Shown here: in pieces, positions 26,498 to 48,204 of the stretch
How the letters are laid out: every line of letters begins with the position of its first letter
How positions within the stretch are numbered: the stretch's first letter is position 1
IMG/VR virus record: IMGVR_UViG_3300033168_000002
Span: 1-63,775 of that record
DNA length: 63,775 bases
Origin: a virus
Lineage: Duplodnaviria; Caudoviricetes
Reading direction: 5' to 3' (one strand)
Made by a program: the position numbers and the translations under genes
The notes under the pieces: generated by a model
Databases searched by the model: none
What the model was told of the DNA's origin: nothing
The model's input: only the letters and a program-made list of their open reading frames with translations

Positions 26498-26562
26498 TAC
26501 TGTTTGTCTCCTTTGCCCGCGCGGCTCATCGGCCGTGGGCGCACTCACTCATGACGCCGGCG

Positions 26563-32527: not shown

Positions 32528-33017
32528 TCATGTCCACCGTTTCGTCGTCGTCCTCCTCCGCGTCGAGCAAGCGCGCCACACGCTCCTCGGTGAGGCAACC
32601 CATTTTCGCGAGTTGCACGAGTGTCTCGCGCATCGAGTTGAGCCACGCGACCTTGAGCACACGAAAAGGCGGTGCTTTCATTTCAATGCGGGCTCCGTCC
32701 ACCGGGTCGGCCACCTGCACCGCACGGTCGAACTTGCCCTCCAACCACTCCCGCTCGCGCCGGCACTCCTCGTGATACTTCTCCCACGCCTCCGTGATGA
32801 TGAGCTTGTAGTTCGCGACGACATAGGCCAGTGTCCCCGTCAACTCCTGCCTGGCCCACGCCAGGAGGTCGTCGCCGACGGCGGCCAGGTCACGCGCGAC
32901 GGTGTCGTCGGAGACGCCTAATTCAGCGCGGATCTGGCCGAGCGACTTACCGGCCACGATACCCTGGTAGACCTTTGCCCGGCGACGAGCCATTTGCTTA
33001 TCCGACAGGCGTGGCAT
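32460..33017 (-). CDS. terS: Terminase small subunit (N-terminal HTH)
   Basis: GKSLGQIRAELGVSDDTVARDL HTH; directly upstream of terL. Confidence 0.7.
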   Translation of the reverse strand: MPRLSDKQMARRRAKVYQGIVAGKSLGQIRAELGVSDDTVARDLAAVGDDLLAWARQELTGTLAYVVANYKLIITEAWEKYHEECRREREWLEGKFDRAVQVADPVDGARIEMKAPPFRVLKVAWLNSMRETLVQLAKMGCLTEERVARLLDAEEDDDETVDMSERSEIELRALVARGGRGIGAA

Positions 33018-33142
33018 ATGTTCCCCACACTCCGCAATACTCCGCACAACGCACGCATACACACGCGGATTAGGTCGCGCGTCCAGAGCGCGTGGAGAGA
33101 CCCAGTCGCCTCCGCGGAGGCCGCGCCCCAGACATGCACGCA

Positions 33143-33180
33143 GGCTAGGCGCGCACGACCGGGCGGGCAAGGGGCCGGGC
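33143..33180 (-). promoter_or_regulatory. Late-promoter-like repeat copy 3 (terminase operon)
   Basis: 21-mer at 33160-33180; TTGCCC-N17-TAGCCT. Confidence 0.62.
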
Positions 33181-33213
33181 AGGGAGGCGCCGCGCGTGGA
33201 GGCAGGAAGAGGG

Positions 33214-33591
33214 TTAGCCCGCCTCGGTCATGTAGGCCGGCCGCGTGGTCTCATCCCACGGCAGGTAGCCCAGCTCACAGCCCACCTCGAAGCGCGCGCT
33301 GACCCACTCAGCCAGCCGCTCGCGCAGGCGCAACGGCACGCTCCAGACACTCTCCTTGGGCCGCCAGGTGGCCGCTCCGTGCGTGGGGAACGTGGCGCGG
33401 AAATCGGCGTGCAGCGCGGACCTGTCGGCGGGTCTATCCGTCTTCCAGGCGATCAACAGCCGGCCGTCACGCTCCACACAGCGGACCCGCGCCTCACGCA
33501 CGCTCATCCGGCGCAGGGAGGCCGTCGTCGTGGGAGCCCCGCAGGACGCACAAGGACGCGCGACGCGTGCGGGTTGGGGCGCGACACCCAT
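33214..33591 (-). CDS. Hypothetical protein (HARP-like W.P....W motif)
   Basis: ATWRPKESVWSVP. Confidence 0.45.
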   Translation of the reverse strand: MGVAPQPARVARPCASCGAPTTTASLRRMSVREARVRCVERDGRLLIAWKTDRPADRSALHADFRATFPTHGAATWRPKESVWSVPLRLRERLAEWVSARFEVGCELGYLPWDETTRPAYMTEAG

Positions 33592-33883
33592 TAGGCGGCC
33601 TCGGCCGTGTCAGCGGACACCGCTGCCTCAGGTGTGGCCGCCGGGATCGTCACGGTCAACCCATGCACGACACGGAGCGCGTCGACGGCGGCCAATTCGA
33701 CGAGCGCGCCGGCCAGGCGCACGGCCAGGTCGCGCGTCAGCGGCTTCTGCGCGCTGGTCTGGTCACTCAGGTATTCAACCTCTGGCCGCGTCAGCGCCAG
33801 ATAGATGTAGGGCTCGTTCTCGCTCATCGCTCGTCCCTCGTGTGCGTTGGTCTGGACCATCGGTGTGATTGGTGTGGAGACCG

Positions 33884-34282
33884 TTATCTCGTGCCGCTAT
33901 CGTCGGCGACAGAGGGCGGGCGGGCAAGGGGCCGGGCGCGCACGCGCTGTGTGAAGGCCGCGATCCCCTGGTCCACATCGTCAATGCTCGTGGCGAGGAT
34001 GTAGGGTATCCCGCGCGCATCCATGTCCTGCTGAAACAGCTTTTGGGCTGGCCGCTGCTTGCCCCCTGGTCGCTTCACCTCAACGAAGGCGAGGAAGATG
34101 TACCCATCGACCACAAGACCAAACACAATATCCGCCGTCCCCGCCCGTGCGAGCGTGACCAGGTTGTTGCGCGCGTCGCGCATCCCGCCACTGTTCAACC
34201 GTTGCACGTAGAAATGTCTATAGCGCAGGTAGGTGATGATCGCGGCCTGGATGTCTCGTTCAGTGGCCACAGGCGCCGTCAC
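33884..34282 (-). CDS. VRR-NUC / PD-(D/E)xK endonuclease
   Basis: TERDIQAAI, GTADIV, FVEVKRPGGK..PAQ..F. Confidence 0.85.
   Translation of the reverse strand: MTAPVATERDIQAAIITYLRYRHFYVQRLNSGGMRDARNNLVTLARAGTADIVFGLVVDGYIFLAFVEVKRPGGKQRPAQKLFQQDMDARGIPYILATSIDDVDQGIAAFTQRVRARPLARPPSVADDSGTR
33898..33937 (-). promoter_or_regulatory. Late-promoter-like repeat copy 4
   Basis: 21-mer at 33917-33937; TTGCCC-N17-GACGAT. Confidence 0.55.
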
Positions 34283-34422
34283 GGACCCATCCAGACTCCA
34301 TCGCGGTGTCCGCTGACACGCCTTCCCTTGTGTCGCCATCGTTCGTTAGCTCCCCCTCGGGCCGTCGGCGAGCGCCATCACCGCCACCATGAGCACGGCC
34401 AGGCCAGCCGCCAGCAGCAGCG

Positions 34423-35001
34423 TCATGACGCCTCCCGTTCGTCCGTGAGCACATGGCGCCAGGTCTCGCCGCGGACAACACGCCGAATCGTGGCCCGGCT
34501 CACACCATACCGCTGGGCGAGCGCCTCCCCCGTCCAGCCGCCTCCGCTGTGTCCGAGGTCAGCGGACCTGACACGGCCGCCCGCGTCCAGGCCTCGGCTG
34601 AGGCGCCTGATCTCACGTACGGATGCCGGGGAGAGCCGCGCGTGCGCGATACCTTCCCCCCGCGCCACGCACGGTTCCCGGTCACCGCGCGTGAGCCCGG
34701 CCAGCAGCAACGCCACGCGCGCCACCACACGGCGATGACCGCACCGTTCGTCGTGCCACCAGCGTAGCGCGTCCACGCGTCCCCACGCTCCTTGCCGTTC
34801 GTCCAGCCCGACCCGCTTATAGATCAACGCCAGCCGGTTCTTGACCGCGTGGGCACTCACCCCGAGCAGGTCGCCAATCTGGCGGTTGCTGTGGTTGTGG
34901 TAGGCCACCTCCAGCATCACCATCATGCGCTCCGTCAGCCCGTTGCCGGCCTCCACCGAGGCGTCCTCCAACCCGTTGTCCGTGTCCAATGGGGTCTCCA
35001 T
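34423..35001 (-). CDS. Two-HTH regulator (LuxR-type N-terminal HTH), candidate late activator
   Basis: LTER...SNRQIGDLLGVSAHAVKNRLALIYKRVG; C-terminal LAQRYGVSRATIRRVVRGETW. Confidence 0.75.
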   Translation of the reverse strand: METPLDTDNGLEDASVEAGNGLTERMMVMLEVAYHNHSNRQIGDLLGVSAHAVKNRLALIYKRVGLDERQGAWGRVDALRWWHDERCGHRRVVARVALLLAGLTRGDREPCVARGEGIAHARLSPASVREIRRLSRGLDAGGRVRSADLGHSGGGWTGEALAQRYGVSRATIRRVVRGETWRHVLTDEREAS

Positions 35002-35164
35002 TCTCAGGCCGGTCCCCGTCGTGTCGCGTGATAGCTATGGCGACACACGTAAAAATGCGGCGCGGCGACGGGCTGGGTCCGCCGCGTCCGCTGACGCGCC
35101 ATCCGGGGCCGTCCGCGTTCGCACGGCCCCTTGTTAGCACATCTGTACGTGCTAAGGTGAGCAT

Positions 35165-35848
35165 ATGATGAGTGATACGCCGCATCGCCCCTATAGCGTT
35201 TTTGTCTCAGGACCAGCGGCGCCAGGGCTCACCGTTCCCGCTCCTCTGACACCGGTCAGTGTCGCCGCCACCTCTCTCGGCGTGGCCTCGCTGCTGATGG
35301 AACAACTGCTCGACCACAGCCCCGCCGTCGTCACACACAGCTTGCGCGTGGCGCGGCACGCCGCCCGCGTGGCGTCGCGGTTGCCGGGCGATCCCTGGCG
35401 CGGCCGGGAGAGCGAGGTGTACGCGGCGGCGCTCGTGCACGACGTCGGCAAGATCAACGAGCCGCTGGACATCCTGCTGGCGGCACGGCCACTCACGGCC
35501 ATCGAGTACGCCTGCATCAAGGGTCACCCGTTCCATGGCGTCGCCCTGGTGCGCCAGTACGCGGCCGTGTCGCCCTTGCTGGAGGAAGCGGCGTGGGGGC
35601 ATCATGAGTGGTGGGACGGCACGGGCTACCCGCGCCGCCTGGCGGGCGCGGAGATCCCGGCGATCGCGCGTCTGATCAGCCTGGTCGATGCGTTCGACGC
35701 CATGTGTGAGGATCGGCCCTACCGCGCGGGGATGACGCCGGCGGCGGCGCTTGGGGAGATTGAGCGCGGGGCCGCCACGCAGTTTCAGCCCGCGCTCGTG
35801 GCCTGGGTGTTGGCTCACGGGTTGCTCTCAGACTCCGACGGGGGATAG
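35165..35848 (+). CDS. Stand-alone HD-GYP cyclic-dinucleotide phosphodiesterase
   Basis: HSLRVA, ALVHDVGK, HHEWWDGTGYP, VDAFDAM..DRPYR all intact. Confidence 0.93.
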   Translation: MMSDTPHRPYSVFVSGPAAPGLTVPAPLTPVSVAATSLGVASLLMEQLLDHSPAVVTHSLRVARHAARVASRLPGDPWRGRESEVYAAALVHDVGKINEPLDILLAARPLTAIEYACIKGHPFHGVALVRQYAAVSPLLEEAAWGHHEWWDGTGYPRRLAGAEIPAIARLISLVDAFDAMCEDRPYRAGMTPAAALGEIERGAATQFQPALVAWVLAHGLLSDSDGG

Positions 35849-36174
35849 TCCCACGGATAACGCGGCAACGGCGGCACGACAAAGCGGTAGATGCGGTCGG
35901 CCTTCTCCTCGTTCGTATGCCCATCCCATTCCCCCTCGTACAGATCCCACACGGGGTAGGCTTCGCCCGACGCAAGGTGATAGCTAATCTGCCCGGTCGG
36001 CAGGTCGATCATCAACACCGGCCAGTCGGGCTCATTGGGGTCAACACGCAGCCCAACAGCATAGCCCCTTTCCTCCGCCAGCTTCGCCGCCAGTTGGACG
36101 GCACGGTTGCGGTCGGCGTACAGGGCGTCGCGCTCTGCAAGCAACTCGGTAATCACCTCTTCATGTGTAGGCAT
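35815..36174 (-). CDS. Conserved phage protein (WDGH motif)
   Basis: IDLPTGQISYH...WDGHT. Confidence 0.7.
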   Translation of the reverse strand: MPTHEEVITELLAERDALYADRNRAVQLAAKLAEERGYAVGLRVDPNEPDWPVLMIDLPTGQISYHLASGEAYPVWDLYEGEWDGHTNEEKADRIYRFVVPPLPRYPWDYPPSESESNP

Positions 36175-36356
36175 CGTTCACTCCTCCTCGTCGCTGTCGT
36201 CCTCGTCGTCATTGAGTATCGCCGCGCAGTCTGGGTGTACGTCGTGCCACACGATCGGCGCGTCTGATGGCGCGCCTGGCGCGGCCGTGCTTTGCGTCCA
36301 AATCTCCACGGAGCGGCCCCGGATCTCGCCGCCGCACATGAAGCATCTCTTCGCCA

Positions 36357-37535
36357 CTACCGTAATCCTCCCATCTCTTCACCGCCTCTCCCGGCGCCGA
36401 CCAACTCAGGCGTGATCTCGCCCCGACCACGCAGGTACGCGACCGCTTCCCGCGCCGATGTCAGGCCCTCGGCCGCCATCACCAAATCCAAAGACGATCC
36501 ACCCTGACCGCTCATGTGACAATGCCACAACCCCCGCTCCACATCCACCGACAGCGAGGGTGTCTGATCGCCATTGCCATGATGTGGTAGTGGACAATGG
36601 TAGACGCCGCTCCGGCTGACCTCGACGCCGTACCCGGCCAATACCTCCTCGAGGGGATGATCGCGCTTCCAGCGCTCGATCGGCGACTGACCCAGCGGCT
36701 CGAACGGACGCCACCGCTCCTGCGTCCGCTCCCTGGTCGGCTCCGGCGCCCGGTCCAGCGTCCCGATGCGCTCCTCTTCCAGCCAAGATCGCCGCTCAAC
36801 CTCTCTCATGACGTCTATAGTTGGTACCGAGAGGATATATCCCAACTGCCCCCCCAGTGTCGTCGCCACGGGCCGGCCATCCGGCAGAATGAATGGATAG
36901 CGCTCCCCGCTTTTCTGGTGCAGGCCGAACGGTCCCCGCACGCTGTAGCCGACCTTGCCCTCTCCTAACTCGTGCTGCTTGGGGTTGATCTCGACCGCGC
37001 CGCGTCCCTCGGCCATGCGCGCCCGTTCCTCCGCGCCGACGGCGTACAGCAGCAGGTTTTGCATCGACCGCGCCGGCACAGATTCGGCGGCGAAGATCCG
37101 GACACGCGCGCCACGCCGGGAGAGTTCGAGCGCGCTGCTGATGCCGGCCCGCTCTAGCCGCAGATGCGCGTCCCGCATCAGCTCACGCCCGTTGACCGGC
37201 TCGTACCACTGCACCTTACCCGGCTGATGCGGGTCAGGGACAGGCCGCTTGTCGTCGCACTCCATGACGCCCTCACGGCACAATGTCTGCCCGCCCGCCC
37301 GCTTGGCGCTGTAGAAGGCGAGCGTCGTCTGGCCGCGCAGGTGGCGTTCGATCAACTCATCGGTGACGGGCAGGGGCTTTTCCTTGCCGAACCGCTGGTC
37401 ATAGGCCCGGAGATAGTGCCCGCCCCGCTCCTGGCCCTCCTGGTCACGCCAGAGGGGCTGTTGAACGCAGTAGGTCTCATCGACGTAGGCGAAACGCTCG
37501 CGATAGGCATGGATGCGCGCGTCATGGCTAGCCAT
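36357..37535 (-). CDS. AEP-like primase with C-terminal CHC2 zinc finger
   Basis: IERHLRGQTTLAFY, ELSRRGA, INPKQ, GPFGLH (TOTE-type AEP-like); CPLPHH..DQTPSLSV...WHCH...GSSLDLVM (CHC2). Confidence 0.75.
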   Translation of the reverse strand: MASHDARIHAYRERFAYVDETYCVQQPLWRDQEGQERGGHYLRAYDQRFGKEKPLPVTDELIERHLRGQTTLAFYSAKRAGGQTLCREGVMECDDKRPVPDPHQPGKVQWYEPVNGRELMRDAHLRLERAGISSALELSRRGARVRIFAAESVPARSMQNLLLYAVGAEERARMAEGRGAVEINPKQHELGEGKVGYSVRGPFGLHQKSGERYPFILPDGRPVATTLGGQLGYILSVPTIDVMREVERRSWLEEERIGTLDRAPEPTRERTQERWRPFEPLGQSPIERWKRDHPLEEVLAGYGVEVSRSGVYHCPLPHHGNGDQTPSLSVDVERGLWHCHMSGQGGSSLDLVMAAEGLTSAREAVAYLRGRGEITPELVGAGRGGEEMGGLR

Positions 37536-39447
37536 CGAGCACCTGCCAGTCAATGAGTAGGTCCGACGTGGGGCCGCTTGCCGGCAACGGTGGCAGCGCC
37601 GGTTGTGCCGGGGTCGTGACAGGCGGCGTTAGTGCGCCCCGTCGCCGTAAGCGAAGATTCCAATACCACCTGCCGGCCCACCAGAGCTTGACCGGGCGTA
37701 GGTTGCCGACGATGGCCAGCAGCTGCGGCGCCCACAGCCGGCGTACCTCGTCAGCGGTTAGCAGCGGCCGCCCCTTCTCCGACAGCCCCATGTTGCCCTG
37801 CTTCATCAGGATCTCGCCGCCATCCCTGGTCGCCCCGCCCTGGCGCTGGGCCACGGTGGCATCTCCAAGCTCCTGGGCCACGGCCTCGGCCTGCTCGGCG
37901 CGCAGGCCCGGCAGTACGAGATGCGCGTAGCAGCCCTGCAGGATGATCTTGCGCCCGGCCTCGGTGTAGATCTCATCCAACTGCGTCGTCGATTGCGCCC
38001 CGATCACGGTCCCGATCCCGGCTTCACGCGTCGTGTTCAGGCGCGCTGGCAAGTCGGCAATCTTGCCGATGGTCCCGATCTCGTCCCACCAGTTCATCAC
38101 CCGACGTCGCAGTGTCTTCCTGGCTCCGCCGGCGCTGTTGGCCTCCCGGAGCAGTTCGATGTTCATCTGGTCGAAGAGCGCGCCCACGAAGGGGCGCAGC
38201 ATCCGTTCGTAGCCGGGCGTCAGGGTCACAAAGACCGCGACGGGCGGCAGGGCAGGGTCGGCCAGGTCGCGCCAGACCACGCTGTTGCGGCGCGTGGTCT
38301 CGACGATCCTGCTATCCCACAGGGTCATGAATTTCAGCGGCGGTCCACTAAAGACCGACCCTTCGAGCCGGTCGTTTTTCTCCATGAAGGTGAGCATCCC
38401 CTTCGCCGCTTCCCGCGCCTGGTCGCTATTGGAGCGACGCAACGTGCTCTTGATCGTCTCGGCGGGTTGGCTCAGGAACTTTTGTACGCCCCGCAACGTG
38501 GCCGTGCCGTGTTCCTCCATCAGGTGCCACAGCGTCGCGATCAGCAGTAACGTTGTGGTATCGTCCCAGTACGGCGTGTCGCTGTTGCGGCCGGTATTCT
38601 CAATGAGGCTGGCGGCCCAGGCGAACGCATCGGCCGGCTCCTGGATGTGCGCGGGATCGAGCGGATTATAGCCGTCGCTGGTCGGGTCCAGCCAGTCAAT
38701 GCGCACGACGCGGTAGCCGAGCCGGGCAAGCCAGCCGGCGGTTTGCGCGTAGATGCCCCCCTTGCTGTCGGTGAAGGTCAGGCTGGGTAGCCGCCCTGAC
38801 CGTTTGTGCCGCAGCGAGAGCCGCAAGACGTTCTCGACGATGAGCCTCGTCTTGCCGTAGCCCGGTGGCCCCCACAGGATGGCGTTCCGCGCCTGATCCT
38901 TCTCGCGGATTGACAGACGCGGGCCGATCCCGAGCGGACCGATACGCCCGATGCTGAAGGGCACTTCGCGGCGACGGGCGTACAAGCGCCACCACACATA
39001 CCAGCCCGCCCAACCGGCCGAGCCACTCGACCGGGAGAGGCGCAACCCACCGGCGACGTGGCGCGACAGCCGCAGCAGGGGCCGCCACAGCCGCCACAGC
39101 ACGAGTAGGGCGACGATCAGCAGCAGATAGACCGTCCATTGCCGCACGCGCGCCATATGCCCGCTCCTGGCCTGCAAGCGGCTGTAGCGGGCGGCGATGC
39201 TAGGGCCGCTCCAGTCGTGCCAGCTCACGACGCGGAGCTTACCCGTGGCCATCCGCGTGAGCTTTAGCTGATGGCGTTGGGCGGCGTCGGAGAGATCGGC
39301 GGCGACGGCGGCGGGGTAGGACGCGGCAACGACAGCCGTCTGATAGGCGCGCTGCGTCTGTAGACGTGTGGTGTGGTTTGATAGAGCGACGCGATAGCCG
39401 GCGACGAGGCCGGCGGCAATGACGAGGACGATAATGAGGCGACGCAT
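37528..39447 (-). CDS. virD4: Type IV coupling protein (VirD4/TraG family)
   Basis: Two N-terminal TMs; GPPGYGKT, FTDSKG, YNPL, WDEIG, GAQSTTQL..Y, LLTADEV. Confidence 0.92.
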   Translation of the reverse strand: MRRLIIVLVIAAGLVAGYRVALSNHTTRLQTQRAYQTAVVAASYPAAVAADLSDAAQRHQLKLTRMATGKLRVVSWHDWSGPSIAARYSRLQARSGHMARVRQWTVYLLLIVALLVLWRLWRPLLRLSRHVAGGLRLSRSSGSAGWAGWYVWWRLYARRREVPFSIGRIGPLGIGPRLSIREKDQARNAILWGPPGYGKTRLIVENVLRLSLRHKRSGRLPSLTFTDSKGGIYAQTAGWLARLGYRVVRIDWLDPTSDGYNPLDPAHIQEPADAFAWAASLIENTGRNSDTPYWDDTTTLLLIATLWHLMEEHGTATLRGVQKFLSQPAETIKSTLRRSNSDQAREAAKGMLTFMEKNDRLEGSVFSGPPLKFMTLWDSRIVETTRRNSVVWRDLADPALPPVAVFVTLTPGYERMLRPFVGALFDQMNIELLREANSAGGARKTLRRRVMNWWDEIGTIGKIADLPARLNTTREAGIGTVIGAQSTTQLDEIYTEAGRKIILQGCYAHLVLPGLRAEQAEAVAQELGDATVAQRQGGATRDGGEILMKQGNMGLSEKGRPLLTADEVRRLWAPQLLAIVGNLRPVKLWWAGRWYWNLRLRRRGALTPPVTTPAQPALPPLPASGPTSDLLIDWQVLDG

Positions 39448-39472
39448 AGAGGCTCCTTTCCGCGTGACCGTG

Positions 39473-39619
39473 CTACCGGCGAAAGACGAGATAGAGAAAA
39501 CCGAGGAACGCCAGGACAATGACGACGGGCGGCATGCCCTCACGTATATCCATGTACACGGCCAGGCACACAAAAGAAACGACGGCGGCGATGAGCAGGG
39601 TGAGCAGGATGCGGCGCAT
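39473..39619 (-). CDS. Small two-TM protein
   Basis: GAGGAGG RBS; two hydrophobic helices. Confidence 0.6.
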   Translation of the reverse strand: MRRILLTLLIAAVVSFVCLAVYMDIREGMPPVVIVLAFLGFLYLVFRR

Positions 39620-39629
39620 AGAAGCCTCC

Positions 39630-39848
39630 TCAAACCCGCGTTGTACTGTACACCGTTGCAACGGCTATAATCACGCTCCCAGCGACCGCCGTCAGTCCTA
39701 TCATTCCCCAGATGACCATGATCCACAATTCCTTATGTTCACGATAGCCACTGAGCAATCCACGGACGATGACATACAACATCGCCAATCCAACAATCCC
39801 CACGACCATCATCGCTGTGTATGGCCCCACGTCTATCGTGACCTTCAC
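39630..39848 (-). CDS. Small two-TM protein
   Basis: AGGAGGAG RBS before GTG; two hydrophobic helices. Confidence 0.6.
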   Translation of the reverse strand: MKVTIDVGPYTAMMVVGIVGLAMLYVIVRGLLSGYREHKELWIMVIWGMIGLTAVAGSVIIAVATVYSTTRV

Positions 39849-40083
39849 GTACTCCTCCTGACTGATCTCGTTGCCCGTCGCTATACTCGTTTGGCCGCGC
39901 CTCAATGCATGCGTTGCAGCACGGGCAATGGAAGATGCTTGGACCGTTGATCGTGCGCGCCGTCGAGACCGGATCGCCCTCTTCCAGACGGAAAACCGCG
40001 CCGCAGGTGTGGCACGTCACGTCTACCTCATAGAGCCAGAACTGTTTCCTAACGGGGGGTGTCCCCGGTTTGATGATCTTCAC
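39739..40083 (-). CDS. Zinc-ribbon protein
   Basis: CHTC...CPCC; AAAGGA RBS. Confidence 0.55.
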   Translation of the reverse strand: MKIIKPGTPPVRKQFWLYEVDVTCHTCGAVFRLEEGDPVSTARTINGPSIFHCPCCNACIEARPNEYSDGQRDQSGGVREGHDRRGAIHSDDGRGDCWIGDVVCHRPWIAQWLS

Positions 40084-40095
40084 TACGATGTCCTT

Positions 40096-40602
40096 TCATG
40101 TCGCTATCCGTCGCGCTCGTTCCTCGACCTGGCGCTTCCATCGCTCCAACGCCCGCCCCCGGATCTCCACCGAGCGTCCCCCGCTGTCCCGCTTTAGGGC
40201 CTCGTCTGACCCGGCCAAGAGCACATGCGCGTGCGTGTTCTCGGTGTCCCGATGCACCCCAGCGACCCACACCGGCCGCCGGTCTAGCAGCAGGCCGAGG
40301 TCCTCCATAGACACCGCCACTAATGCGCGTGCCGTTGCCGTGTCGTCTAATCCCCGATCGGCGCGCAGACTGAGGATCACGCGGTGATAGGCCACCGGCC
40401 CGGTCCACGCCGGCACCAGGCCATGAGCGGCGATCAGCGCCCGCGCCTCGGCCGGGGACACCGGCGCCAGCAGCCGACCGAACAGCGGGGCGTCGCCGGC
40501 GCGGCTGATGTAGCGACACTGCTGCATGAGGCGCGAAGGCGCGCGGATATTGTTGGCCTGGTAGCGCGTGTCGATCAGCGTGAGAGGCCGGTCGTAACTC
40601 AT
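40096..40602 (-). CDS. Minimal HUH relaxase (MOBP-like)
   Basis: Motif I RYISR, motif II YHRVILSL, motif III HRDTENTHAHVLL. Confidence 0.85.
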   Translation of the reverse strand: MSYDRPLTLIDTRYQANNIRAPSRLMQQCRYISRAGDAPLFGRLLAPVSPAEARALIAAHGLVPAWTGPVAYHRVILSLRADRGLDDTATARALVAVSMEDLGLLLDRRPVWVAGVHRDTENTHAHVLLAGSDEALKRDSGGRSVEIRGRALERWKRQVEERARRIAT

Positions 40603-41030
40603 TCATCGCCGGTCTTTCCGGGGCGCGGCATTTGGGGGAACCGTCCATCAGCGCGCGCCTGGCGGGCCACGCGCACGGCCGCGTCTTCGTTCGTCATCGC
40701 CATGGGCAGGCCCTTGAGGTGCGCGATGAGCGCGAACAAGAGCATGCGCGCCGTCGAGGCCTCGATGTGCGGCCCCTCGAGTAACTCTTTGAGTTGGCGC
40801 GTCATCGTCGCGGTGTAGTCGCCCAGGACACGCCGGGTCATCTCCTCGAGCGCACCCAGTCCCGCCTCGGCCTGGCGCTCGGCGGCCTGGGTGCCGACGG
40901 CCATCTTGACGAGCCGGTCGACGGCCTCACCCTGATTGACTTCCCACTCCTCGGCATGGTCAACAATGAGTTGATGGACCTCGGGCGAGAGCCACAGGTT
41001 GGCGCGCTTCTTGTCGGCGGTCTGGCTCAT
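40599..41030 (-). CDS. RHH relaxosome accessory protein (MobC-like role)
   Basis: RANLWLSPEVHQLIVDHA...QGEAVDRLV; coupled to relaxase. Confidence 0.65.
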   Translation of the reverse strand: MSQTADKKRANLWLSPEVHQLIVDHAEEWEVNQGEAVDRLVKMAVGTQAAERQAEAGLGALEEMTRRVLGDYTATMTRQLKELLEGPHIEASTARMLLFALIAHLKGLPMAMTNEDAAVRVARQARADGRFPQMPRPGKTGDE

Positions 41031-41069
41031 GGGCGCACCGCCCACCGACGCTGCCAGAGAGGCAGGCTA

Positions 41070-41204
41070 AACCAGGGTGCGGGGATCTGCACCACCACAC
41101 ACGACGCCTGAGATGGGCGTGGTGCACGCCTGGTGCAGGCGTCAGGGGCGTTGCACCGGCGTGGTGCAGGCGCTATCTCAGGGGAAAGCGGGCGTTGCAC
41201 CACG
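41070..41204. promoter_or_regulatory. Candidate oriT: cluster of direct and inverted GGTGCA/TGCACC repeats
   Basis: Six hexamers within about 120 bp plus CCTGAGAT/ATCTCAGG and GACGCCTG/CAGGCGTC inverted pairs, just upstream of RHH-relaxase. Confidence 0.45.
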
Positions 41205-41251
41205 TCACTCACCGCCCTTTAGCCTGTCAGGGGACGCGGCGCCTGTGGAGG

Positions 41252-41479
41252 TTAGGAGACCTTCTGTTGCTGGTACGCTGGGCGTTTGCGCTTGAACGTC
41301 GCCAGGAGCTTGGTCGTGACTCCGCTCTGCATGTTGCTCGCCTGCAACGGCACAACGTTGACTAACTCCCAGCCCTCCTGCCCAGCCTGTCGCAAGTCGT
41401 TCTCGTAACGCGGGATCTCCTTCTTGGAGTCGTTGAGGTTGTACTCGCGCACGAAGTAGTCGAAGAGGTCCATAGCCAT
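41252..41479 (-). CDS. DUF4177-like protein
   Basis: LRQAGQEGWELVNVVP...FKR. Confidence 0.75.
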   Translation of the reverse strand: MAMDLFDYFVREYNLNDSKKEIPRYENDLRQAGQEGWELVNVVPLQASNMQSGVTTKLLATFKRKRPAYQQQKVS

Positions 41480-41753
41480 TCACCCCCAGCACAGTCACCC
41501 CGCCCGCGACGCCCACGGTCGTTGCTACTAGGGTAACACCTAACGACGGGATATGCAGGACCATGAGGGTTACATAGAACCCGACTAGTGTAGCCAGCGC
41601 TTGTGTCGCCAGGCCGAGCGGAAGCGTTCCTTCCAACGACAGACGCCGGCGCACATCAGGCAGACAGCACCACCACGATACGATAGCCCATGCCTGTTCA
41701 CCTAGTGGGATGACTCGCAACAACGTGCGCCACATCAGTAGATCCCTTTCTCG

Positions 41754-42917
41754 TTAAAAAAGCTTACCCTTGATGGTCCTCGCAAGCCCTCCAGCCCCAC
41801 TTGTCGCCACCGCCGTTCCCACACCAACCGCGAAGCCCGCGATCCCCGACCCATGCCCCGCCATATGTGAGCCGAGTAATTCATCGACCGCCCGCGGCAC
41901 GCCGTAGCCGAAAATTAAGAGCGCCACGACGATGAACGGCTTGAGGAGCGTCGCTACCGTCTGATCCGGCGACAATGACAAATCGGTGAGCACGGCCTCC
42001 ACGATCTTGAGCCAGAGCGCCCAGCCCGCGCCCCACAACGCGACGGCGGTGAAGTTCCAGAACCAGCGCCCCACGATGCGTGAGCCCATCGGCCACGTCG
42101 CCACCGCCAGCACCCCCACGCAGGCGAGCCAGGCGAGGATGGCGACGGACATCAGCTTGATCAGCAGCACCAGCAACAGCACCACAATCCCCACGACGGC
42201 GGCGAGTAGGTCCAGCGGGTTGGTCAGGTTGAGCAGCGCGGCGCCCAGCGCCACGAGTTGATCGGCGCCGGCGTGACCCGCGTGGTTCGTCAGCAGGTCG
42301 CTAACGGCCTGGGCCAGGTCCAGGATCTGGCCGATGATCCACACGGTCGCCGGGATCAGGATCGCGGCCTCGATGGCGCGTCCCATCATCGCCGCGCCGA
42401 CGAGCGCGGCCCCGGCGTCGTTGCCCCACACCGTCCCGCGCAGCTGCAGCACGATGCCAAATACCAGGAAGCTGCCGGCCATGCCCAGCGCCGCCGTCTG
42501 GAGGAAGCCGAGGAAGCCGGCGAGCTCCGTCCACTGATCGATGCGCACGACGGCGGTGAAGACGCCGGAGATGGCGTGCACCACGGCGTCGATGCCACCC
42601 GTGATCCAGCCGACCAGGCCACCGACGGCGACGGCGAGGACGTCGAACGCGTGCAGGCAGCCCAGCGGCCCGAGGCAGACGCCCGGCCCACCCGACGATG
42701 AGCCGCCCGTATCGCCGGGCACGGTACCCGTGTAGACACCCGTGGGCAGCGACGTGGGGCTAGGCGCCGTGGTCGCGGTCGGCAACGGGACGGCCGTTTC
42801 CACAATCACGACAGGCGTCTGTGTAGGGGCCGGCGTCGCCGTCGGCGTGTCCGTGGGCTTTGGCGCGGCCGCGAGCACGACCGTTAGGAGCACAAGGGCT
42901 TTGACCAGAGCGATCAT
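41754..42917 (-). CDS. VirB6/TrbL-like polytopic conjugation channel protein
   Basis: Signal peptide + Pro/Thr linker, many TMs, C-terminal VPRAVD; coupled to VirB4. Confidence 0.72.
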   Translation of the reverse strand: MIALVKALVLLTVVLAAAPKPTDTPTATPAPTQTPVVIVETAVPLPTATTAPSPTSLPTGVYTGTVPGDTGGSSSGGPGVCLGPLGCLHAFDVLAVAVGGLVGWITGGIDAVVHAISGVFTAVVRIDQWTELAGFLGFLQTAALGMAGSFLVFGIVLQLRGTVWGNDAGAALVGAAMMGRAIEAAILIPATVWIIGQILDLAQAVSDLLTNHAGHAGADQLVALGAALLNLTNPLDLLAAVVGIVVLLLVLLIKLMSVAILAWLACVGVLAVATWPMGSRIVGRWFWNFTAVALWGAGWALWLKIVEAVLTDLSLSPDQTVATLLKPFIVVALLIFGYGVPRAVDELLGSHMAGHGSGIAGFAVGVGTAVATSGAGGLARTIKGKLF

Positions 42918-45100
42918 ACCGCCGCCTCGTCGCGTTCCGGTGGCGTGCTATCCGACAGGCTCTTCACCGCCGCCCACAGATCCCCCCCTTGCTCCTCGAT
43001 GGCGCGCTGGCGCGTCTTGTACTGCCAGGTCCGCTTGTCGTTCTGGAAGAGCCACTGCTCATCGGCGTCGATCACGATATCCACGGCGCCGCGCACCACG
43101 CTCCCTTCGAGCATGTTGTGCCGCATCACATAGCACTGGCCGCGGCGTAGCGCCTTGACCAGCGCGATCTCCTTGGGCGTCAGGCCCATCGCGCTGCCCA
43201 GGCGGCTGGCGACGCCCTGCGTGTCGACCAGCGCAAAGACAATCTTGATGGCCGACTGGCTGAACATCTGTGTCATCTGCTTGTGCGCGATCAACTCCTC
43301 GGGATCGTGTGTGACCCAGAGCACAAAACCCGCCCAGTGGCGGCCGCGCTTGGCCAGGTCCATCACCCAGAATGACGCGTCGAGGTATTCAAGCTGCCAG
43401 GCTTCCTCGAGCACGAACATGTGCTGCATGTCGCCCACGACCGTCTGCACCCGCCCATCAACGGCCGCGCGGAAGTCAGCGTCGAAGCTGTTGCCGCGCA
43501 AGTCGACCACCACCATCTGCGTCGTGAGCGGCGTGGCGCGCAACGCGTCGGCCGTGGTCACGATCGCCGCTCCGCACAGCGCGCCCAGGCCCGCGTAGTG
43601 CCCCGTGCGGTCCAGGACGGTCACGCGCCCGCCGCGCAAGAGCCACTCCTTGATCATCTTGAGCATGAGGACCGTCTTACCCATGCCGCTCAAGCCGAAG
43701 ATCGACACGAGGCTGTTACGCAGGCTCTCATCGGTCGGATCAAGCCTGACGAGCTCGCCGCGCTCGGTCTCGCCGATCAGCAGACCGGCCCGCGTCGAGG
43801 GGTTGGCCCGGTTGAAGGGGTAGGTGTTGGCAATGGTCTCGGCGTCCAGGCGCCACACGGAGCGCGCCCAATCGCGCCCGGGCTGGGTCGAGGCCGCCAG
43901 CGGCCATTGATGGCCCAGCCCCGTCGCGGGCGTCGCCGCGGCCGGCCCCTTCATCACCAGCATGGCCCGCCGCGCCTTCCGCCGCGCGTCCCCTGGCGTG
44001 TCGCCCACAAACGAGAGATAGAGTCCCGTCTTTAGGAGCCCTTGCCCTGGCTGCCGCAGGCGCATCATGGCGCGCTCGGCTTCCGAGAACTGCGCCGACT
44101 TCTCACCCATCCCATTGCCTAACCCTGATGCCGCCTGCACCAACTGCAAGCCCGTCTGCCGGTTGCGGCCGGCCAATCTAAGCCGCTCGCGGTTGGGGTC
44201 CGTGCCATGCGCCCATAACGTGAGCGCGTAGGGACCGGGCTGGCCGATCAACGCATCCAGCCAGCCCGGATCGGTCTCGGCCGGCGGCAACAGCATGGCG
44301 AACGACGCGGCATAGCGGCCATCCGTGAGCCGGACCGTTGTGGCCGTTTCCCCCTTCGGGTCGGGCGCCAGGGCTCCCTCGACGCTACTAACGCGGCGCG
44401 CGGCCAGGCCCATCGCTGCCAGTTGTTTGCGGGTCTCCGACACGAGATCGTCGAGCAGCGTCACGTCGTCGTCGCGGAAGCCGAGCAGGGGGATGCGGCT
44501 AAAGAGCGAGCGTTCCCAGCCGGTGGGCTCGTAGAGCACGAGGTAGTAGCGCAGATCGGTTTCCCGGAGGCCGCGCGTGGCCAGGCGTGCGATCTTGCGG
44601 TCGGCGAGCTCGCCCATAGCGCGGCCGATCGGGCGCTGCGCGGCGCGCTCCTGGGCGACCAGCGCGCCCGCGTCGTGCGTGCGGTTGGTGACGATGATCT
44701 GCACCGCGCCGGTGGGGCAGGCCGCCGCCACGATGCGCTGCAACCGCTCGATCAGCCGGATATCCTGCTCTTCCTCGGTCAGGGCGTCGCGCGTGTAGCC
44801 GTCCACCTCCAAAATGACGTGCGGCCGCGCCTTTGTCTTGGCTGGTCCCAGCAAGCGGCGCAGCAGGTAGCCGCCCAATTGCGCGGTGTAGGGCTCACGG
44901 CGCACACCCTGCGACAGCCGAAAGAGGCCCCACAGCAGGACACCAGCGATGAGCGCGCCGAGGCCATGCAACAGCGACGGGAAACGGTTATGGATGAGCA
45001 AATAGACGCCGACGACGGCCACGGTTTGGCCGATGGTCAAGCCAAAGAGGTAGCGGTTACTGTCGTCGGCAAACATGAGAGTCTTTGACGCGTGCGCCAC
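42914..45100 (-). CDS. virB4: VirB4-family ATPase with fused N-terminal PrgI/VirB3-like domain
   Basis: LFGLTIGQ + TMs; YPF; IFGLSGMGKT; VLDRTGHY; VLEEAW; KRGRHW; GLTPKE. Confidence 0.88.
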   Translation of the reverse strand: MAHASKTLMFADDSNRYLFGLTIGQTVAVVGVYLLIHNRFPSLLHGLGALIAGVLLWGLFRLSQGVRREPYTAQLGGYLLRRLLGPAKTKARPHVILEVDGYTRDALTEEEQDIRLIERLQRIVAAACPTGAVQIIVTNRTHDAGALVAQERAAQRPIGRAMGELADRKIARLATRGLRETDLRYYLVLYEPTGWERSLFSRIPLLGFRDDDVTLLDDLVSETRKQLAAMGLAARRVSSVEGALAPDPKGETATTVRLTDGRYAASFAMLLPPAETDPGWLDALIGQPGPYALTLWAHGTDPNRERLRLAGRNRQTGLQLVQAASGLGNGMGEKSAQFSEAERAMMRLRQPGQGLLKTGLYLSFVGDTPGDARRKARRAMLVMKGPAAATPATGLGHQWPLAASTQPGRDWARSVWRLDAETIANTYPFNRANPSTRAGLLIGETERGELVRLDPTDESLRNSLVSIFGLSGMGKTVLMLKMIKEWLLRGGRVTVLDRTGHYAGLGALCGAAIVTTADALRATPLTTQMVVVDLRGNSFDADFRAAVDGRVQTVVGDMQHMFVLEEAWQLEYLDASFWVMDLAKRGRHWAGFVLWVTHDPEELIAHKQMTQMFSQSAIKIVFALVDTQGVASRLGSAMGLTPKEIALVKALRRGQCYVMRHNMLEGSVVRGAVDIVIDADEQWLFQNDKRTWQYKTRQRAIEEQGGDLWAAVKSLSDSTPPERDEAAV

Positions 45101-45117
45101 GATATACCGCCTTTCGC

Positions 45118-45369
45118 CTAAAAGAAGGTCCCGGCCGCGCCGATGATCACCGAGGCCACGACAACAGCGGTAATCACTTCTCGAAGATGCTCCCACCCCC
45201 GCCGATGGCCGATGACACCCATCACGACCGCCAGGCCAATACCGATGATGGCAACGTACTGAAGCCAGCCGGGAACCCACCCGGCGTAGGTGGACATCTT
45301 GGCGCAGAACGGGTCGCCGTTGACGCAGCTAGCTTGCGCCAGGCCAATGATGATGGTGGACAGGTACAT
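45118..45369 (-). CDS. VirB2/TrbC-like pilin
   Basis: 83 aa, two hydrophobic helices around a basic loop, first gene before VirB4. Confidence 0.6.
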   Translation of the reverse strand: MYLSTIIIGLAQASCVNGDPFCAKMSTYAGWVPGWLQYVAIIGIGLAVVMGVIGHRRGWEHLREVITAVVVASVIIGAAGTFF

Positions 45370-45508
45370 GATGGTCTTCCTTTCGTTGCAGTGGTGTCAC
45401 GGGCTGATATGGTTATAGTAACACTTTTAGGCGTTTATTAGGCACCTAAAACTAACGGGTATTCTGGGGGTGTTATAGTGTCCCCATAATGACCGTGAAG
45501 GGGGCCAT

Positions 45509-45724
45509 GTGGCGCGACCGCGCAAGAAGGAGGGTGAGTTGTATTCAGAACGCGTGCCCGTGCGGCTACGACCGCGCGACAAGGAACTACTGGAACGCAT
45601 CGCCGACGAGCGCGGTATCCCCGCCTCGATCGTGGCGCGCGAGGTCATCATGGACTATCTAACGCATCGCTCCACTCAGGCGGACATCGCGGGCACGGCA
45701 CACAGCAAAGAGGACATGCGGTAA
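45509..45724 (+). CDS. RHH regulator divergent from the conjugation operon
   Basis: MARPRK...VPVRLRPRDKELLERIA.ERGIP.S..AREVI. Confidence 0.8.
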   Translation: MARPRKKEGELYSERVPVRLRPRDKELLERIADERGIPASIVAREVIMDYLTHRSTQADIAGTAHSKEDMR

Positions 45725-45752
45725 ATGATGATACGGGGGATGGCGGCGACTT

Positions 45753-45983
45753 ATGCCTGATGACGAGGAATACTTCACCCTGACCGAAGCCATGAGGCGC
45801 GCGGGCATGAGGAACAACAAAACCATCGCAGCAGCGGTGCAATCCGGCCGTCTCAAGACGGTGACGACGATGGTCGGGCCGCGCATGGTGCGCCTGACGA
45901 CGCAGGTATGGCTCGACGCGTACCTCGCTAGCCGAGCCACAGGACAACGCCCAACTCCCACGGCCGACGACACCCCCGCCTAA
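45753..45983 (+). CDS. Excisionase-like winged HTH protein
   Basis: YFTLTEA...TIAAAVQSGRL...WLDAYL. Confidence 0.65.
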   Translation: MPDDEEYFTLTEAMRRAGMRNNKTIAAAVQSGRLKTVTTMVGPRMVRLTTQVWLDAYLASRATGQRPTPTADDTPA

Positions 45984-46013
45984 TCCGCACTACCCCGCAC
46001 ACCACCCATACAA

Positions 46014-46052
46014 AGAGAGGGCCGGCGCCGCTATTGGCGCCAGGCCCTCTCT
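46014..46052. terminator. Hairpin between convergent genes
   Basis: AGAGAGGGCC-GGCGCC / GGCGCC-A-GGCCCTCTCT. Confidence 0.7.
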
Positions 46053-46152
46053 ATCTCCTGGTGTATGCTAGACGTGAGCCGGGCGGCAGGCCAGCCTGCA
46101 TGGCGGGCTACCAGACAGGCTGTGAGCTTCTAGCCGCCCGCGCCCTTACCGG

Positions 46153-46389
46153 TCAGTCTTCCTCTCGCTCCTTCAGCCTGATCCAATACCTGTGATAGAG
46201 ATAGCGCACCCGCTGCGCCGAGACCCCCACCAGCCGCGCGATCGCGGCGAACGTCTGCCCCTCGTCGTCGTGCCGGCGCACAATCTCCAGATCGCGCGCG
46301 CTCGGTTGCCACAACGCGCGCAGGGCCGCGGCCTTCGCGTGCTCACTCGGGCGGCTGGGCAGTTGTTCCAGGATCTCAGCGCGACTCAT
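46153..46389 (-). CDS. Sigma-region-4-like HTH protein
   Basis: RDLEIVRR..EGQTFAAIARLVGVSAQRVRY. Confidence 0.65.
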   Translation of the reverse strand: MSRAEILEQLPSRPSEHAKAAALRALWQPSARDLEIVRRHDDEGQTFAAIARLVGVSAQRVRYLYHRYWIRLKEREED

Positions 46390-46646
46390 CGTGACCGTCG
46401 TTTCTCATGCCTCATGTCGTCGTGGTCCATCTTCTGTCCATAGCATAACCTCAGTCAGCATCCGCCGCTCATCCCGCCGGGCGCACGGAAAGCGGCCATG
46501 CGTCGTCACATCGTGCACGTCGACGGCAAGACCCCCGCGTCGCACAGGGACCGGCAGCGGCATGAGCTTCGACGGTGGGGGCTGTGGCGTCACGCTGGCC
46601 GCTGGCGGCACAGGGGGGCGTTTGAGCCGGAGAAAGCGCCAGGCCA

Positions 46647-47027
46647 TTACTGTTTCTCCGCGTCCGAGGCGAGCGTGCGCACGATAGCCTGGAACACATA
46701 ATCCTTGGCGCGCTGCTCCACGGGCAGCTCCGCGTACGGCACGAGACATGGATGTGCCTTCTTGTCGGCATCCTTCACCGGACCATAGACCCAATCATCA
46801 GCCACCTTGAAGGCGCACCAGTTCAGATGCGCGTCTTCCGGTGTGGCCTCAGGATGATCCAGGGCGAAGCGCACCCCGTCAATGGCCGATCCCTTGATGG
46901 CGGCCGGCGCGTCCTCCCAGGCCACCTGCGACGTGTCGCCATAGGCCAGGCACAGCGCCCGGTTGACCTCGTGGCACGTCCGCGCGATCTGCTCAGTGTC
47001 CATCATCACCGTTGTGTCTTTGCTCAT
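46647..47027 (-). CDS. RyR-domain protein
   Basis: H..W...KVADDWVYGPVKDADKKAHPCLVPYAELP.EQRAKD. Confidence 0.85.
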   Translation of the reverse strand: MSKDTTVMMDTEQIARTCHEVNRALCLAYGDTSQVAWEDAPAAIKGSAIDGVRFALDHPEATPEDAHLNWCAFKVADDWVYGPVKDADKKAHPCLVPYAELPVEQRAKDYVFQAIVRTLASDAEKQ

Positions 47028-47335
47028 TAGAATACCCCCTCCTCGTCACTCTCATCATCCACATCCACGATACCGCTGACCTCCGTGTGCCGCCGTGCAA
47101 GACGCTCCGCCCGCTCCGCATCGTACAGCGCCAGGCGCTCGGCGTCGCGTTGCGCGGCCTCGACGCGTTCGCGCTCCTCATCCTCGGCCAGGCGCTCGAC
47201 GACGAGATCACGCAGCAGCATCAGGATCTCGCTCGGCGAGTCACCCTCGTCAACCTGCGCGCTCGCGCTCATCGACCTGTTGCCATAGTTGCCGTCGGAC
47301 ATCTTGCGCTCGTAGTGCACCGTGCTTACCTGCAT
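47027..47335 (-). CDS. Hypothetical protein
   Basis: GGAGAG RBS; coupled to RyR gene. Confidence 0.55.
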   Translation of the reverse strand: MQVSTVHYERKMSDGNYGNRSMSASAQVDEGDSPSEILMLLRDLVVERLAEDEERERVEAAQRDAERLALYDAERAERLARRHTEVSGIVDVDDESDEEGVF

Positions 47336-48204
47336 TGCCCTCTCCTCCGAGTTATCCCCATATCACGCCATTTATCCACATATCCACAGTTAGGCCGCGC
47401 CATCATCCGTCGCCACCAGTCGCAGTCGCGACCTGCTTACCGTCGGCGTGCGCATCACCGCCTGGAGCGCGAGGTTCCGTTCAAGCTGATCGTTCAGGCG
47501 CTCATAGGCGTCAGCCTCGATCTTGACCCACTCGATCCTGTCGATGCGCCGGGCGGCGGCGTCCACAGCCGCCTCAACAGCGTCATCCCGCGTGTAACGT
47601 GGCATCACCCTGCTCCTCTCGCGCTGCTGTCTCTGGCACGTCCACGCCGACATAGTGGACGTGCGGCTCCCCGCTGATCGTGGGCGTGTCCTCCCGCCGC
47701 CACAGGCTCACCAGCGTCAACGTGTCGCCCGTCCGTAGCGCGTGCGTGAACTGGCCGGAGGCGACGGCCAGGCGGTAGGCCGCTTCGGCGTCGGCCTGGG
47801 TGACGAACGGCCAGGTCTGTTCGGTGGCGTTCTCGCCAACATGGACGATCCACGGCGGCGGGTTCGTGCGGCTCACGGTGATCATGTGTCCCCCTCTGTC
47901 CCACTGTCGTCGGCCCAGTTGTACGAGATCCACGTCGGCTCCACGCACGCCGTGAGCAGCCGCCCATCAACGTCCATCCCCTCCGCGTCCTCATCCGTCG
48001 AGGCCCCACACGTCGCGCACGCCCGGAACGTGGCGTAGGAGGGCAGGTGACCCCCGCTGCCCCGGAAATCACGCTGCACGTCGATGATCGTGCGCACCAG
48101 GCGCAGCTCGTGGCCCCCGGCGGCGATCAGCGCGTCGAGGGCGGCGCGCGTGATCGCCGCTGGCTGAGGCACGGGCGTTAAAGGCAGTAGCGCTGTTTCA
48201 GTCG

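Follow-up and report, generated by a model that had tools for sequence, protein, structure and literature searches.

A conserved conjugation operon inside a tailed-phage genome from rock metagenomes: a candidate phage-ICE hybrid

Phages and conjugative elements are treated as two distinct ways of moving genes, which differ in host range, cost and ecology, and the DNA described here raises the question of whether one element can combine the two. The window, i.e. the whole stretch of DNA that was analysed, is the entire IMG/VR record IMGVR_UViG_3300033168_000002 of 63,775 bases (called G000 in comparisons). It carries the genes of a tailed phage together with a conjugation module, which forms one co-oriented minus-strand operon at 36.2-46.0 kb, between the late and the early phage genes. 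The initial annotation had taken this arrangement for a candidate 'conjugative prophage'. Such an architecture, in which phage genes and the transfer genes of an ICE (integrative and conjugative element) share a single integrase, is genuine and is conserved in a small lineage from rock metagenomes, including two further IMG/VR records with complete phage layouts, G001 (62.8 kb) and G002 (58.1 kb). The window is best explained as the whole genome (63.5 kb) of a siphovirus-like temperate phage whose hosts are rock-dwelling bacteria of high GC content, probably monoderm, and the operon as a stable backbone module situated between early and late genes, as in the relatives. Judged by gene content, the balance tilts towards a phage that spreads by its own conjugation as well as by virions, a phage-ICE hybrid and probably a dual-route element. 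Its parts are of known kinds, and only their union in one element would be new; function is here deduced from the genome.

Concerning the completeness of the genome, bases 1-127 are exactly identical to bases 63510-63636, beyond which the copies diverge, and the sequence can therefore be closed into a circle of 63,509 bp. IMG/VR flags the record as linear, with a CheckV completeness of 68% (65-68% for G000, G001 and G002), an estimate that probably understates completeness since the contig closes on itself. The 139 bases past the 127-base repeat look like an alternative (host) junction, and a closed (attP-type) junction and a second junction adjoining the serine integrase are both present on one contig; 127 is also a common assembler word length. 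Lysis, tail, head and packaging genes span 4640-32527 on the minus strand, which holds nearly all genes of the window. Matches to PHROGs identify TerL (31031-32527, minus strand, 2e-94), the portal (29339-31030, minus strand, 7e-44), the head protease (26563-27696, minus strand, 7e-9), an HK97-type major capsid protein (24815-26548, minus strand, PHROG major head, 2e-41), the tape measure protein (16333-19737, minus strand, 6e-29) and a minor tail protein (20435-21388, 4e-15). A large tail-associated hydrolase (10336-13788) is recognized by PHROGs and Pfam, and an Amidase_2 endolysin (4640-5905, minus strand) and a large serine recombinase (61811-63562, minus strand; Resolvase, Recombinase and Zn_ribbon_recom) by Pfam, with further phage genes, assigned by PHROGs or Pfam, for a C5 methylase and for PrimPol plus a DUF3987 helicase-like protein. 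With TerL, portal, capsid and protease, tape measure, tail, endolysin and integrase genes all present, the layout is that of a temperate siphovirus-like tailed phage (Caudoviricetes). Lysis, tail, head and packaging genes are 85-99% identical to their intact G002 homologues and all are full-length against them, in keeping with the initial description of the virion, lysis and integrase genes as intact. Six-frame searches found one recombinase in each of G000, G001 and G002; in the window this is a single Resolvase match at 63062-63487, and no Phage_integrase match, i.e. no tyrosine integrase, was obtained there. The class of the integrase differs among these close relatives, being serine in the window and G001 and tyrosine in G002 (57202-57699).

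The transfer genes lie on the minus strand throughout, in the order and at the positions first described, and they are accompanied on the late-gene side by genes for a helix-turn-helix (HTH) protein and a VRR-NUC nuclease and by a divergent HD-domain gene. No recombinase belonging to the module was revealed by Pfam, NCBIfam or six-frame searches, and no convincing direct repeat flanks it, so that the proposed lack of an integrase, a transposase and flanking repeats of its own holds, with one recombinase in the whole record. Both the VirB4-family ATPase and the type IV coupling protein (T4CP) that CONJScan-style typing looks for are present among the window proteins. Neither the T4CP (best E 0.0019) nor VirB4 has a family in PHROGs, and hence neither is an ordinary phage protein.

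The coupling protein, of VirD4 type, is encoded at 37528-39450 (minus strand, with the open frame extending to 39726), has two N-terminal transmembrane (TM) segments and is unambiguous in its identity, with T4SS-DNA_transf (4.3e-29), TrwB_AAD_bind (6.6e-24) and TraG-D_C (8.6e-20) all matched over the Pfam cut-offs and conju_CD1115 (2.8e-48) as the best NCBIfam model. Its 3' end is overlapped by the gene for an AEP primase with a C-terminal CHC2 zinc ribbon (36357-37553, minus strand), which matches Pfam AEP-TOTE (8.2e-8) and Zn_ribbon_DnaG (5.9e-7), both over cut-offs, as well as PHROG DNA primase families; the VirD4 and primase calls of the initial annotation are thereby borne out. At the locus L010 a 707-aa DUF3854 protein (10413-12536) stands in place of the AEP-CHC2 primase, and the corresponding region of L017 (13851-15947) lacks it. 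The primase is thus a variable accessory of the module, replaced in the one relative and absent in the other.

The VirB4 ATPase gene (42914-45100, minus strand, 728 aa, with an open frame extending to 45280) begins with a VirB3/PrgI-like part, whose first 60 residues comprise two TM helices. Its look-alikes in the Atlas include PrgI-VirB4 fusions, and on both grounds the label 'VirB3-VirB4 fusion' given at the outset is probably right. At the profile level the protein exceeds the Pfam cut-off for P-loop_TraG (27.7 bits against 25.8), gives partial matches to the NCBIfam models TraC-F (4.9e-14) and VirB4_plasma, the mycoplasma ICE VirB4 (7.9e-13), and has a weak PDB profile match to VirB4 4AG5 (7.8e-4). 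An AlphaFold (AF2) model built on 16 homologues (pLDDT 82.6, pTM 0.80) was found by Foldseek to match full-length TrwK/VirB4 of the R388 type IV secretion system (T4SS) with an E of 5.6e-27 and a TMq of 0.65, as compared to only about 1e-7 to 1e-5 and a TMq of 0.2-0.27 for HerA, FtsK and viral packaging ATPases. The G-x-G-K of Walker A and the E-E of Walker B are invariant across the 16 sequences. The modelled fold thus confirms a VirB4-family ATPase over the full length. In G001 and in two relatives from metagenomes, the VirB4 proteins are 1170-1250 aa long and contain an intein (PF14528, PF14890; L001/L016 9980-13516 and L017 4578-8318, proteins P0007 and P0008), which breaks the VirB4 match after about residue 477-482, near the Walker A region.

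The start of the next gene overlaps the VirB4 stop. This gene encodes a VirB6/TrbL-like polytopic membrane protein (41754-42917, minus strand) with at least six hydrophobic segments. Its Atlas look-alikes are TrbL_3 proteins (scores 0.92 and 0.90) and a TrbL Pfam match was obtained for one of 12 homologues scanned; the window protein itself has no Pfam match. The VirB6-like label draws on the position of the gene, its topology and its look-alikes, and the assignment is of moderate strength.

A similar grade applies to the relaxase, a MobA/VirD2-like (MOBP/Q-like) minimal protein of 168 aa encoded at 40096-40602 on the minus strand. Matches to Pfam Relaxase (E 0.004, 17.8 bits against a cut-off of 24.6) and to MobP2 (9.6e-4, 18.9 bits against 200) fall short of the curated cut-offs. 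The AF2 model (pLDDT 74) has as its top fold match the MobA minimal relaxase of R1162 (2NS6, E 6.4e-3, prob 1.0), followed by MobM, TrwC, TraI and NES, among which unrelated Bet v 1-like folds are interleaved at prob 0.04-0.13. All nine homologues share the motif H-x2-T-x3-H-x-H and an upstream H-R without change, and eight of the nine have a candidate Tyr (R-Y-I-S / G-Y-L). The HUH relaxase originally called is supported by its His triad, by the top fold match and by the weak family matches, and it remains a candidate of moderate strength. Likeness to MobA (R1162) and to MOBP/MOBQ relaxases extends to the fold, the His triad, an upstream H-R-h-I-h-S motif and the N-terminal Tyr; the window protein differs in having no C-terminal domain and in that D or N occupies the acidic position of the classical HxDxxxxHxH. 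The spacing of the motif presumably resembles that of RP4 TraI.

Overlapping the relaxase start is the gene of a ribbon-helix-helix (RHH)-like protein, a putative relaxosome accessory (40599-41045, minus strand), which was assigned by eye only, as it has no Pfam or NCBIfam match. It is 67-81% identical in relatives, with a ratio of nonsynonymous to synonymous substitution rates (dN/dS) of 0.26-0.30. Upstream of this gene, at 41088-41203, are six GGTGCA/TGCACC hexamers in nested inverted repeats, i.e. six within 150 bp as compared to 0.09 expected from the window's own density, and four of the seven GTGGTGCA sites of the window fall in the 116 bp upstream of the RHH-like gene. Relatives carry unlike repeat arrays at the same position (L007 7671-7732, L017 10073-10123, L013 14033-14089 and L015 6037-6079, corresponding to 41115-41172 of the window), often with 31 nt from start to start, about three helical turns. 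Such lineage-specific arrays fit sites whose sequence changes along with that of the RHH-like protein binding them, as this protein diverges, and the hexamer array is a candidate origin of transfer (oriT), an RHH operator, or both.

How old is the association of these genes with the phage? The module lies between the same neighbours in G000, G001 and G002. G001 has tail, lysis, integrase and module genes that are 54-91% identical in amino acid sequence to those of the window, and non-homologous TerL, portal and capsid genes; in G002 the head module is 87-99% identical to that of the window and the T4CP, primase and relaxase 79-90% (T4CP and primase 88-90%), with VirB4 and VirB6 at only 28-31%. 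In addition, 14 metagenome contigs with VirB4 proteins 43-93% identical to that of the window retain the module gene order: a VirB6-like gene follows VirB4 in 13 of them, the remaining contig ending inside VirB4, and the T4CP follows wherever a contig reaches far enough (eight loci). Among these, L016, which is near-identical to G001, is the only metagenome locus to reach virion genes. The VirB4 family is rare, with nine clusters among 5.8 billion proteins; a search of representatives, which provides no genomic context, gave 4512 matches at E<=1e-3 and 102 at E<=1e-30, so that there is a gradual passage from this family to the large VirB4 superfamily. Scans of species-genome contigs found no relative, and TerL and endolysin have only distant matches among deposited phages, at <=44% identity. 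The taxa of the Atlas look-alikes, Actinomycetota and Chloroflexota, are no more than leads to the host.

The synonymous divergence (dS) of T4CP and relaxase, 0.60-0.75, is equal to that of a 1150-aa tail gene, 0.62-0.63. Values of dN/dS for module genes are mostly 0.09-0.35, including 0.11-0.13 for the T4CP and about 0.10 for the primase, and the highest are those of the pairs that have diverged furthest (0.51 and 0.44 for VirB6-like against G001 and L017, 0.35 for VirB4 against L009). Virion genes taken as controls give 0.04-0.16 (TerL 0.04-0.08, capsid 0.15, tail 0.15-0.16). By this measure the module genes are under purifying selection.

A related module exists without a capsid. The record G003 (IMGVR_UViG_3300031471_000095, loci L030 and L031, 37.9 kb, CheckV 100%), with the relatives L126 and L128, carries the same module family. 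Its VirB4 is 36% identical to that of the window in a six-frame comparison (31% by BLASTP) and its T4CP 36%; its relaxase has the same His triad, and the gene order is the same. It differs from the window in having a tyrosine integrase, an 809-aa SLT-domain protein and a TerL-like gene (17420-19063), besides genes for a topoisomerase, a primase-polymerase and a helicase, and in that no capsid, portal or tail gene was detected among the 20 open reading frames (ORFs) scanned or in six-frame searches with phrog_10 and phrog_12. G003 may represent either a satellite-like element or an ICE that has a terminase. A T4SS gene pool is thus common to the phages and to capsid-less ICE-like elements of their habitat, and the breakpoint inside the module of G002 reveals an exchange of cassettes. 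Homologues farther afield are remote: in PLSDB plasmids the T4CP finds matches of 26-29% identity, the nearest being Bacillota CD1115-family genes, and VirB4 two weak matches. Among deposited phages the T4CP matches three unannotated gut 'Bacteriophage sp.' records at 24-26% identity and VirB4 has no match by tblastn, a method that remote VirB4s would escape.

Several other explanations of this arrangement can be set against these data. An assembly chimera, in which a phage had been fused to an ICE of another genome, might be suspected from the metagenomic origin of the record, its linear flag and its 68% completeness, and it had been named beforehand as an outcome that would speak against a hybrid. 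However, the same joins recur in two records from other data sets, G001 and G002, and the early-side junction is crossed by the metagenome contigs L007, L008, L016 and L017. Furthermore, in each of two rock-metagenome runs a single Logan contig (20,598 and 48,212 nt, respectively) spans 32000-49000, junctions included, with 0 differences and with even depth (23 and 18.6), although these runs may be the source reads and are then a check on the assembler and not on the sample. Apparent read joints were read as other organisms or repeats, their sides measuring only 21-30 letters or the runs being of low share. A chimera is effectively excluded, with a negligible probability. It is also quite unlikely that the module is a recent, independent passenger, i.e. 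a separate mobile element or its remnant nested in a prophage. The exchange of sub-cassettes, as seen in the divergent VirB4/VirB6 and similar T4CP/primase of G002, the intein in G001 VirB4 and the presence of the module family outside phages, in G003, would be compatible with such mobility, but the module has neither a recombinase of its own nor flanking repeats, and its composition is indistinguishable from that of the phage: G+C (GC) content ranges from 0.60 to 0.72 across the window and is 0.64-0.69 in the 36-46 kb stretch, inside the range of the rest. Moreover, the insertion neighbours are the same in three genomes differing by a dS of about 0.6. A relative with a clean empty site, another foreseen outcome that would have favoured a passenger, was not encountered among 79 TerL-related loci (80 kept of 124 relatives, minus G002) or among 10 loci found via neighbouring genes (six with the 126-aa early gene and seven with the HD gene); few relatives exist, and all of these loci, none of which carries the module, are distant and too far removed to count as empty sites.

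A more serious difficulty concerns what the module does. Several findings weigh against conjugative self-transfer, the main reason for caution being that the system is smaller than any characterised monoderm T4SS. TcpC (PF12642) is found in none of the four records G000-G003, in a search able to detect its target as the B. subtilis control matched (one of 14 control genomes); a VirB8 profile (PF04335) matched no record and no control genome, which makes that search uninformative. An SLT hydrolase was not found in G000-G002 and is present in the capsid-less G003, and an M23 hydrolase is seen in none of the four records; the cell wall may be crossed with the help of phage hydrolases, or without a need for them. 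The relaxase lies below every curated cut-off with no fold match at E<=0.001, and its candidate Tyr is absent in one of nine homologues. Assignments are weak for VirB6, RHH, Xis and pilin. Some relatives do without the primase, which is absent after the T4CP in L017 and L010. Virion genes are seen with the module in three genomes only, the other 13 metagenome loci being too short, and all relatives come from rock metagenomes, a narrow run of related data sets. Such a stripped-down system, without a VirB8/TcpC-like protein or dedicated hydrolase and with a relaxase of just 168 aa, could have been repurposed for a phage-specific job other than self-transfer, such as non-lytic spread in a filament or microcolony, export of protein or biofilm DNA, exclusion of conjugative elements or rolling-circle initiation. 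The module primase is a second one, beside the phage PrimPol and DUF3987, and the position between early and late operons resembles that of a 'middle' phage function. Yet the trio of relaxase, T4CP and VirB4 is kept together with the oriT-like array in all three phages, replication needs no T4CP, and the capsid-less integrative G003, for which the module's obvious role is self-transfer, has it as well; repurposing is accordingly given only a small chance. Comparably improbable is the converse history, an ICE with a captured or domesticated virion module, or a defective prophage, for which conjugation would be the actual route and whose particles would be non-infectious or like gene transfer agents or tailocins. 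It would be in line with the wholesale swapping of head modules between relatives while T4CP, relaxase and tail genes stay, with the existence of capsid-less related elements such as G003 and with CheckV values of just 65-68% for the three phage records. Nevertheless, all hallmark genes for virion, lysis and replication have their full length and evolve under purifying selection, the layout is that of a classical temperate siphovirus, and the contig closes on itself.

A phage that carries its own conjugation system can be compared with several known systems. The closest in gene content are the minimal monoderm ICEs (MPF-FA/FATA style and Clostridioides CTn-type CD1110/CD1115), which likewise have a relaxase with an accessory protein, T4CP, PrgI/VirB3-VirB4, a VirB6-like protein and small membrane proteins, with the transfer genes in one operon of an element with an integrase; ICEBs1, Tn916 and pCW3 are examples of elements with such minimal T4SSs. 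The window differs in that its module is embedded in a tailed-phage genome, in the small size of the relaxase and in the lack of any detected TcpC/VirB8-like protein or SLT hydrolase. Scores remain under the NCBIfam equivalog cut-offs, with 164.9 bits against 250 (CD1115) for the T4CP and 23 against 325 (CD1110) for VirB4. The window proteins are thus predicted to work like the CD1115 and CD1110 families without being members of them.

Among unions of phage and conjugation functions, phage-ICE tandems, of which 612 were reported in a global screen, are described by Huang et al. (Sci Adv 2026, PMC13651849) as site-specific accretions in which two separate elements lie side by side, 'rather than a hybrid element'. 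As described there, a prophage and conjugation functions exit as one circle cut by the phage integrase and conjugate, which is the likeness to the window. In a tandem, both of the neighbouring elements have an integrase and att sites of their own; in the window, by contrast, a single recombinase is present and the module is interior, without flanking repeats, and retained in the mosaic relatives. Phi1207.3, a 'conjugative prophage' of Streptococcus pyogenes, has a transfer mechanism left unresolved in its source, in which 'relaxase' and 'type IV' occur 0 times (PMC4260502); the window phage differs in encoding transfer machinery, known here from genes alone. Phage-plasmids such as P1, N15 and SSU5 (Pfeifer et al. 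2021, PMC7969092) also join a tailed phage and the lifestyle genes of another element in a single replicon and form ancient stable families, not recent fusions (PMC7969092, PMC12282955). They are presented in the review as extrachromosomal, with none conjugative (PMC12282955), a statement with which the original claim of novelty agrees. The window element appears to differ from them in being integrative, with a serine integrase and attP-type closure, and in bearing transfer genes rather than plasmid maintenance genes. Full-text searches, which did not extend to supplements such as those of PMC13651849 or Table S4 of PMC7969092, where 122 phages are given as having plasmid features after a screen that took in conjugation genes, listed no tailed phage encoding a relaxase, a T4CP and a VirB4 of its own. 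The only ParB_N domain of the window is fused to DUF5131, no systematic search for plasmid Rep/ParA profiles having been made.

The remaining genes of the operon are small. The first is a pilin-like gene of 83 aa (45118-45369, minus strand), whose product has a VirB2-like topology, with a signal-like N-terminus and two TM segments; the label given to it is supported at the level of topology, and Pfam and NCBIfam gave no match. The gene is conserved in G001 and L007, with a dN/dS of 0.16. Between the VirB6-like gene and the hexamer array are a small two-TM ORF (41480-41735, minus strand, 3' end uncertain), which by tblastn is 54-65% identical in five relatives (L007, L008, L017, L019 and G001), and a small DUF4177 protein (41252-41479, minus strand; Pfam 1.5e-6, above the cut-off), which is conserved in relatives. 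A variable stretch at 39473-40083 (minus strand) contains a Cys-rich zinc-ribbon-like ORF (about 39880-40083) and two-TM ORFs at 39630-39905 and 39473-39661, none with a family match, and relatives hold different small ORFs at this position. At the other end, a 59-aa Cys-motif ORF (36178-36357, minus strand), without a family match and not conserved in G001 or G002, has a GTG start that shares one base with the TAG of the primase, so that the TAGTG overlap pointed out earlier is real (36359-36355).

Divergent from the operon, on the plus strand, are two ORFs initially called RHH and Xis-like regulators. That at 45509-45724 is weakly RHH_9 (E 0.0023, below the cut-off), which lends this RHH call some support; the Xis-like HTH ORF at 45753-45983, like the RHH-like gene within the module, lacks a family match. 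Counterparts of the Xis-like ORF in G001 and G002 show 70-79% identity, and its place is always next to the module. A terminator-like hairpin at 46022-46043 (minus strand; eight pairs, seven of them G-C), just upstream of this divergent regulator region, could separate the early operon from the module. On the late side, the stand-alone HD_5/HD-domain protein (2.9e-30), encoded on the opposite strand beside the module (35165-35848, plus strand), is 59-91% identical in G001 and G002.

Elsewhere in the window, where no tRNA was found, the ParB_N domain fused to DUF5131, which has a weak radical-SAM match, adjoins the C5 cytosine methylase (50574-52169 and 48205-49983), and this pair may constitute a DNA-modification module. 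An Acyl_transf_3 membrane acyltransferase (1e-32), whose gene separates the tail genes from the lysis genes and runs opposite to them (7980-9155, plus strand), is likely a surface-modifying moron of lysogenic conversion.

Returning to the dual-route phage, a course of events can be proposed from its genes. The single integrase and the self-closing contig point to an element that exists as a unit able to form a circle. After excision, the RHH-like protein would bind the hexamer array at 41088-41203, and the 168-aa relaxase would nick there and stay bound to the 5' end. As expected from the function of their families, VirD4 would pass the relaxase-DNA complex to a minimal channel made of the PrgI-VirB4 ATPase, the VirB6-like protein and small membrane proteins. 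In the recipient, the AEP-CHC2 primase would prime complementary-strand synthesis and the serine integrase would insert the circle. The same replicon, to judge by its gene content, could enter the lytic cycle and leave as virions. Tentatively, and with slightly less than even confidence, these phages may therefore be seen as a 58-64-kb conjugative lineage with two exits, either as tailed virions or as relaxase-piloted single-stranded DNA through a minimal T4SS of their own, in which the phage supplies the wall-breaching functions and cassettes are exchanged with capsid-less ICE-like siblings.

At present, virus and plasmid classifiers use phage genes and conjugation genes as mutually exclusive hallmarks. 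If the phage is indeed able to leave by both exits, it would be the first hybrid of the phage and conjugation routes within a single element. Several problems would then become testable, namely whether a host range limited by receptors can be escaped by mating, how the choice among lysis, lysogeny and transfer is made, and how small a working T4SS can be. Physiologically, such a dual strategy would be adaptive in the dry, diffusion-limited biofilms of rocks.

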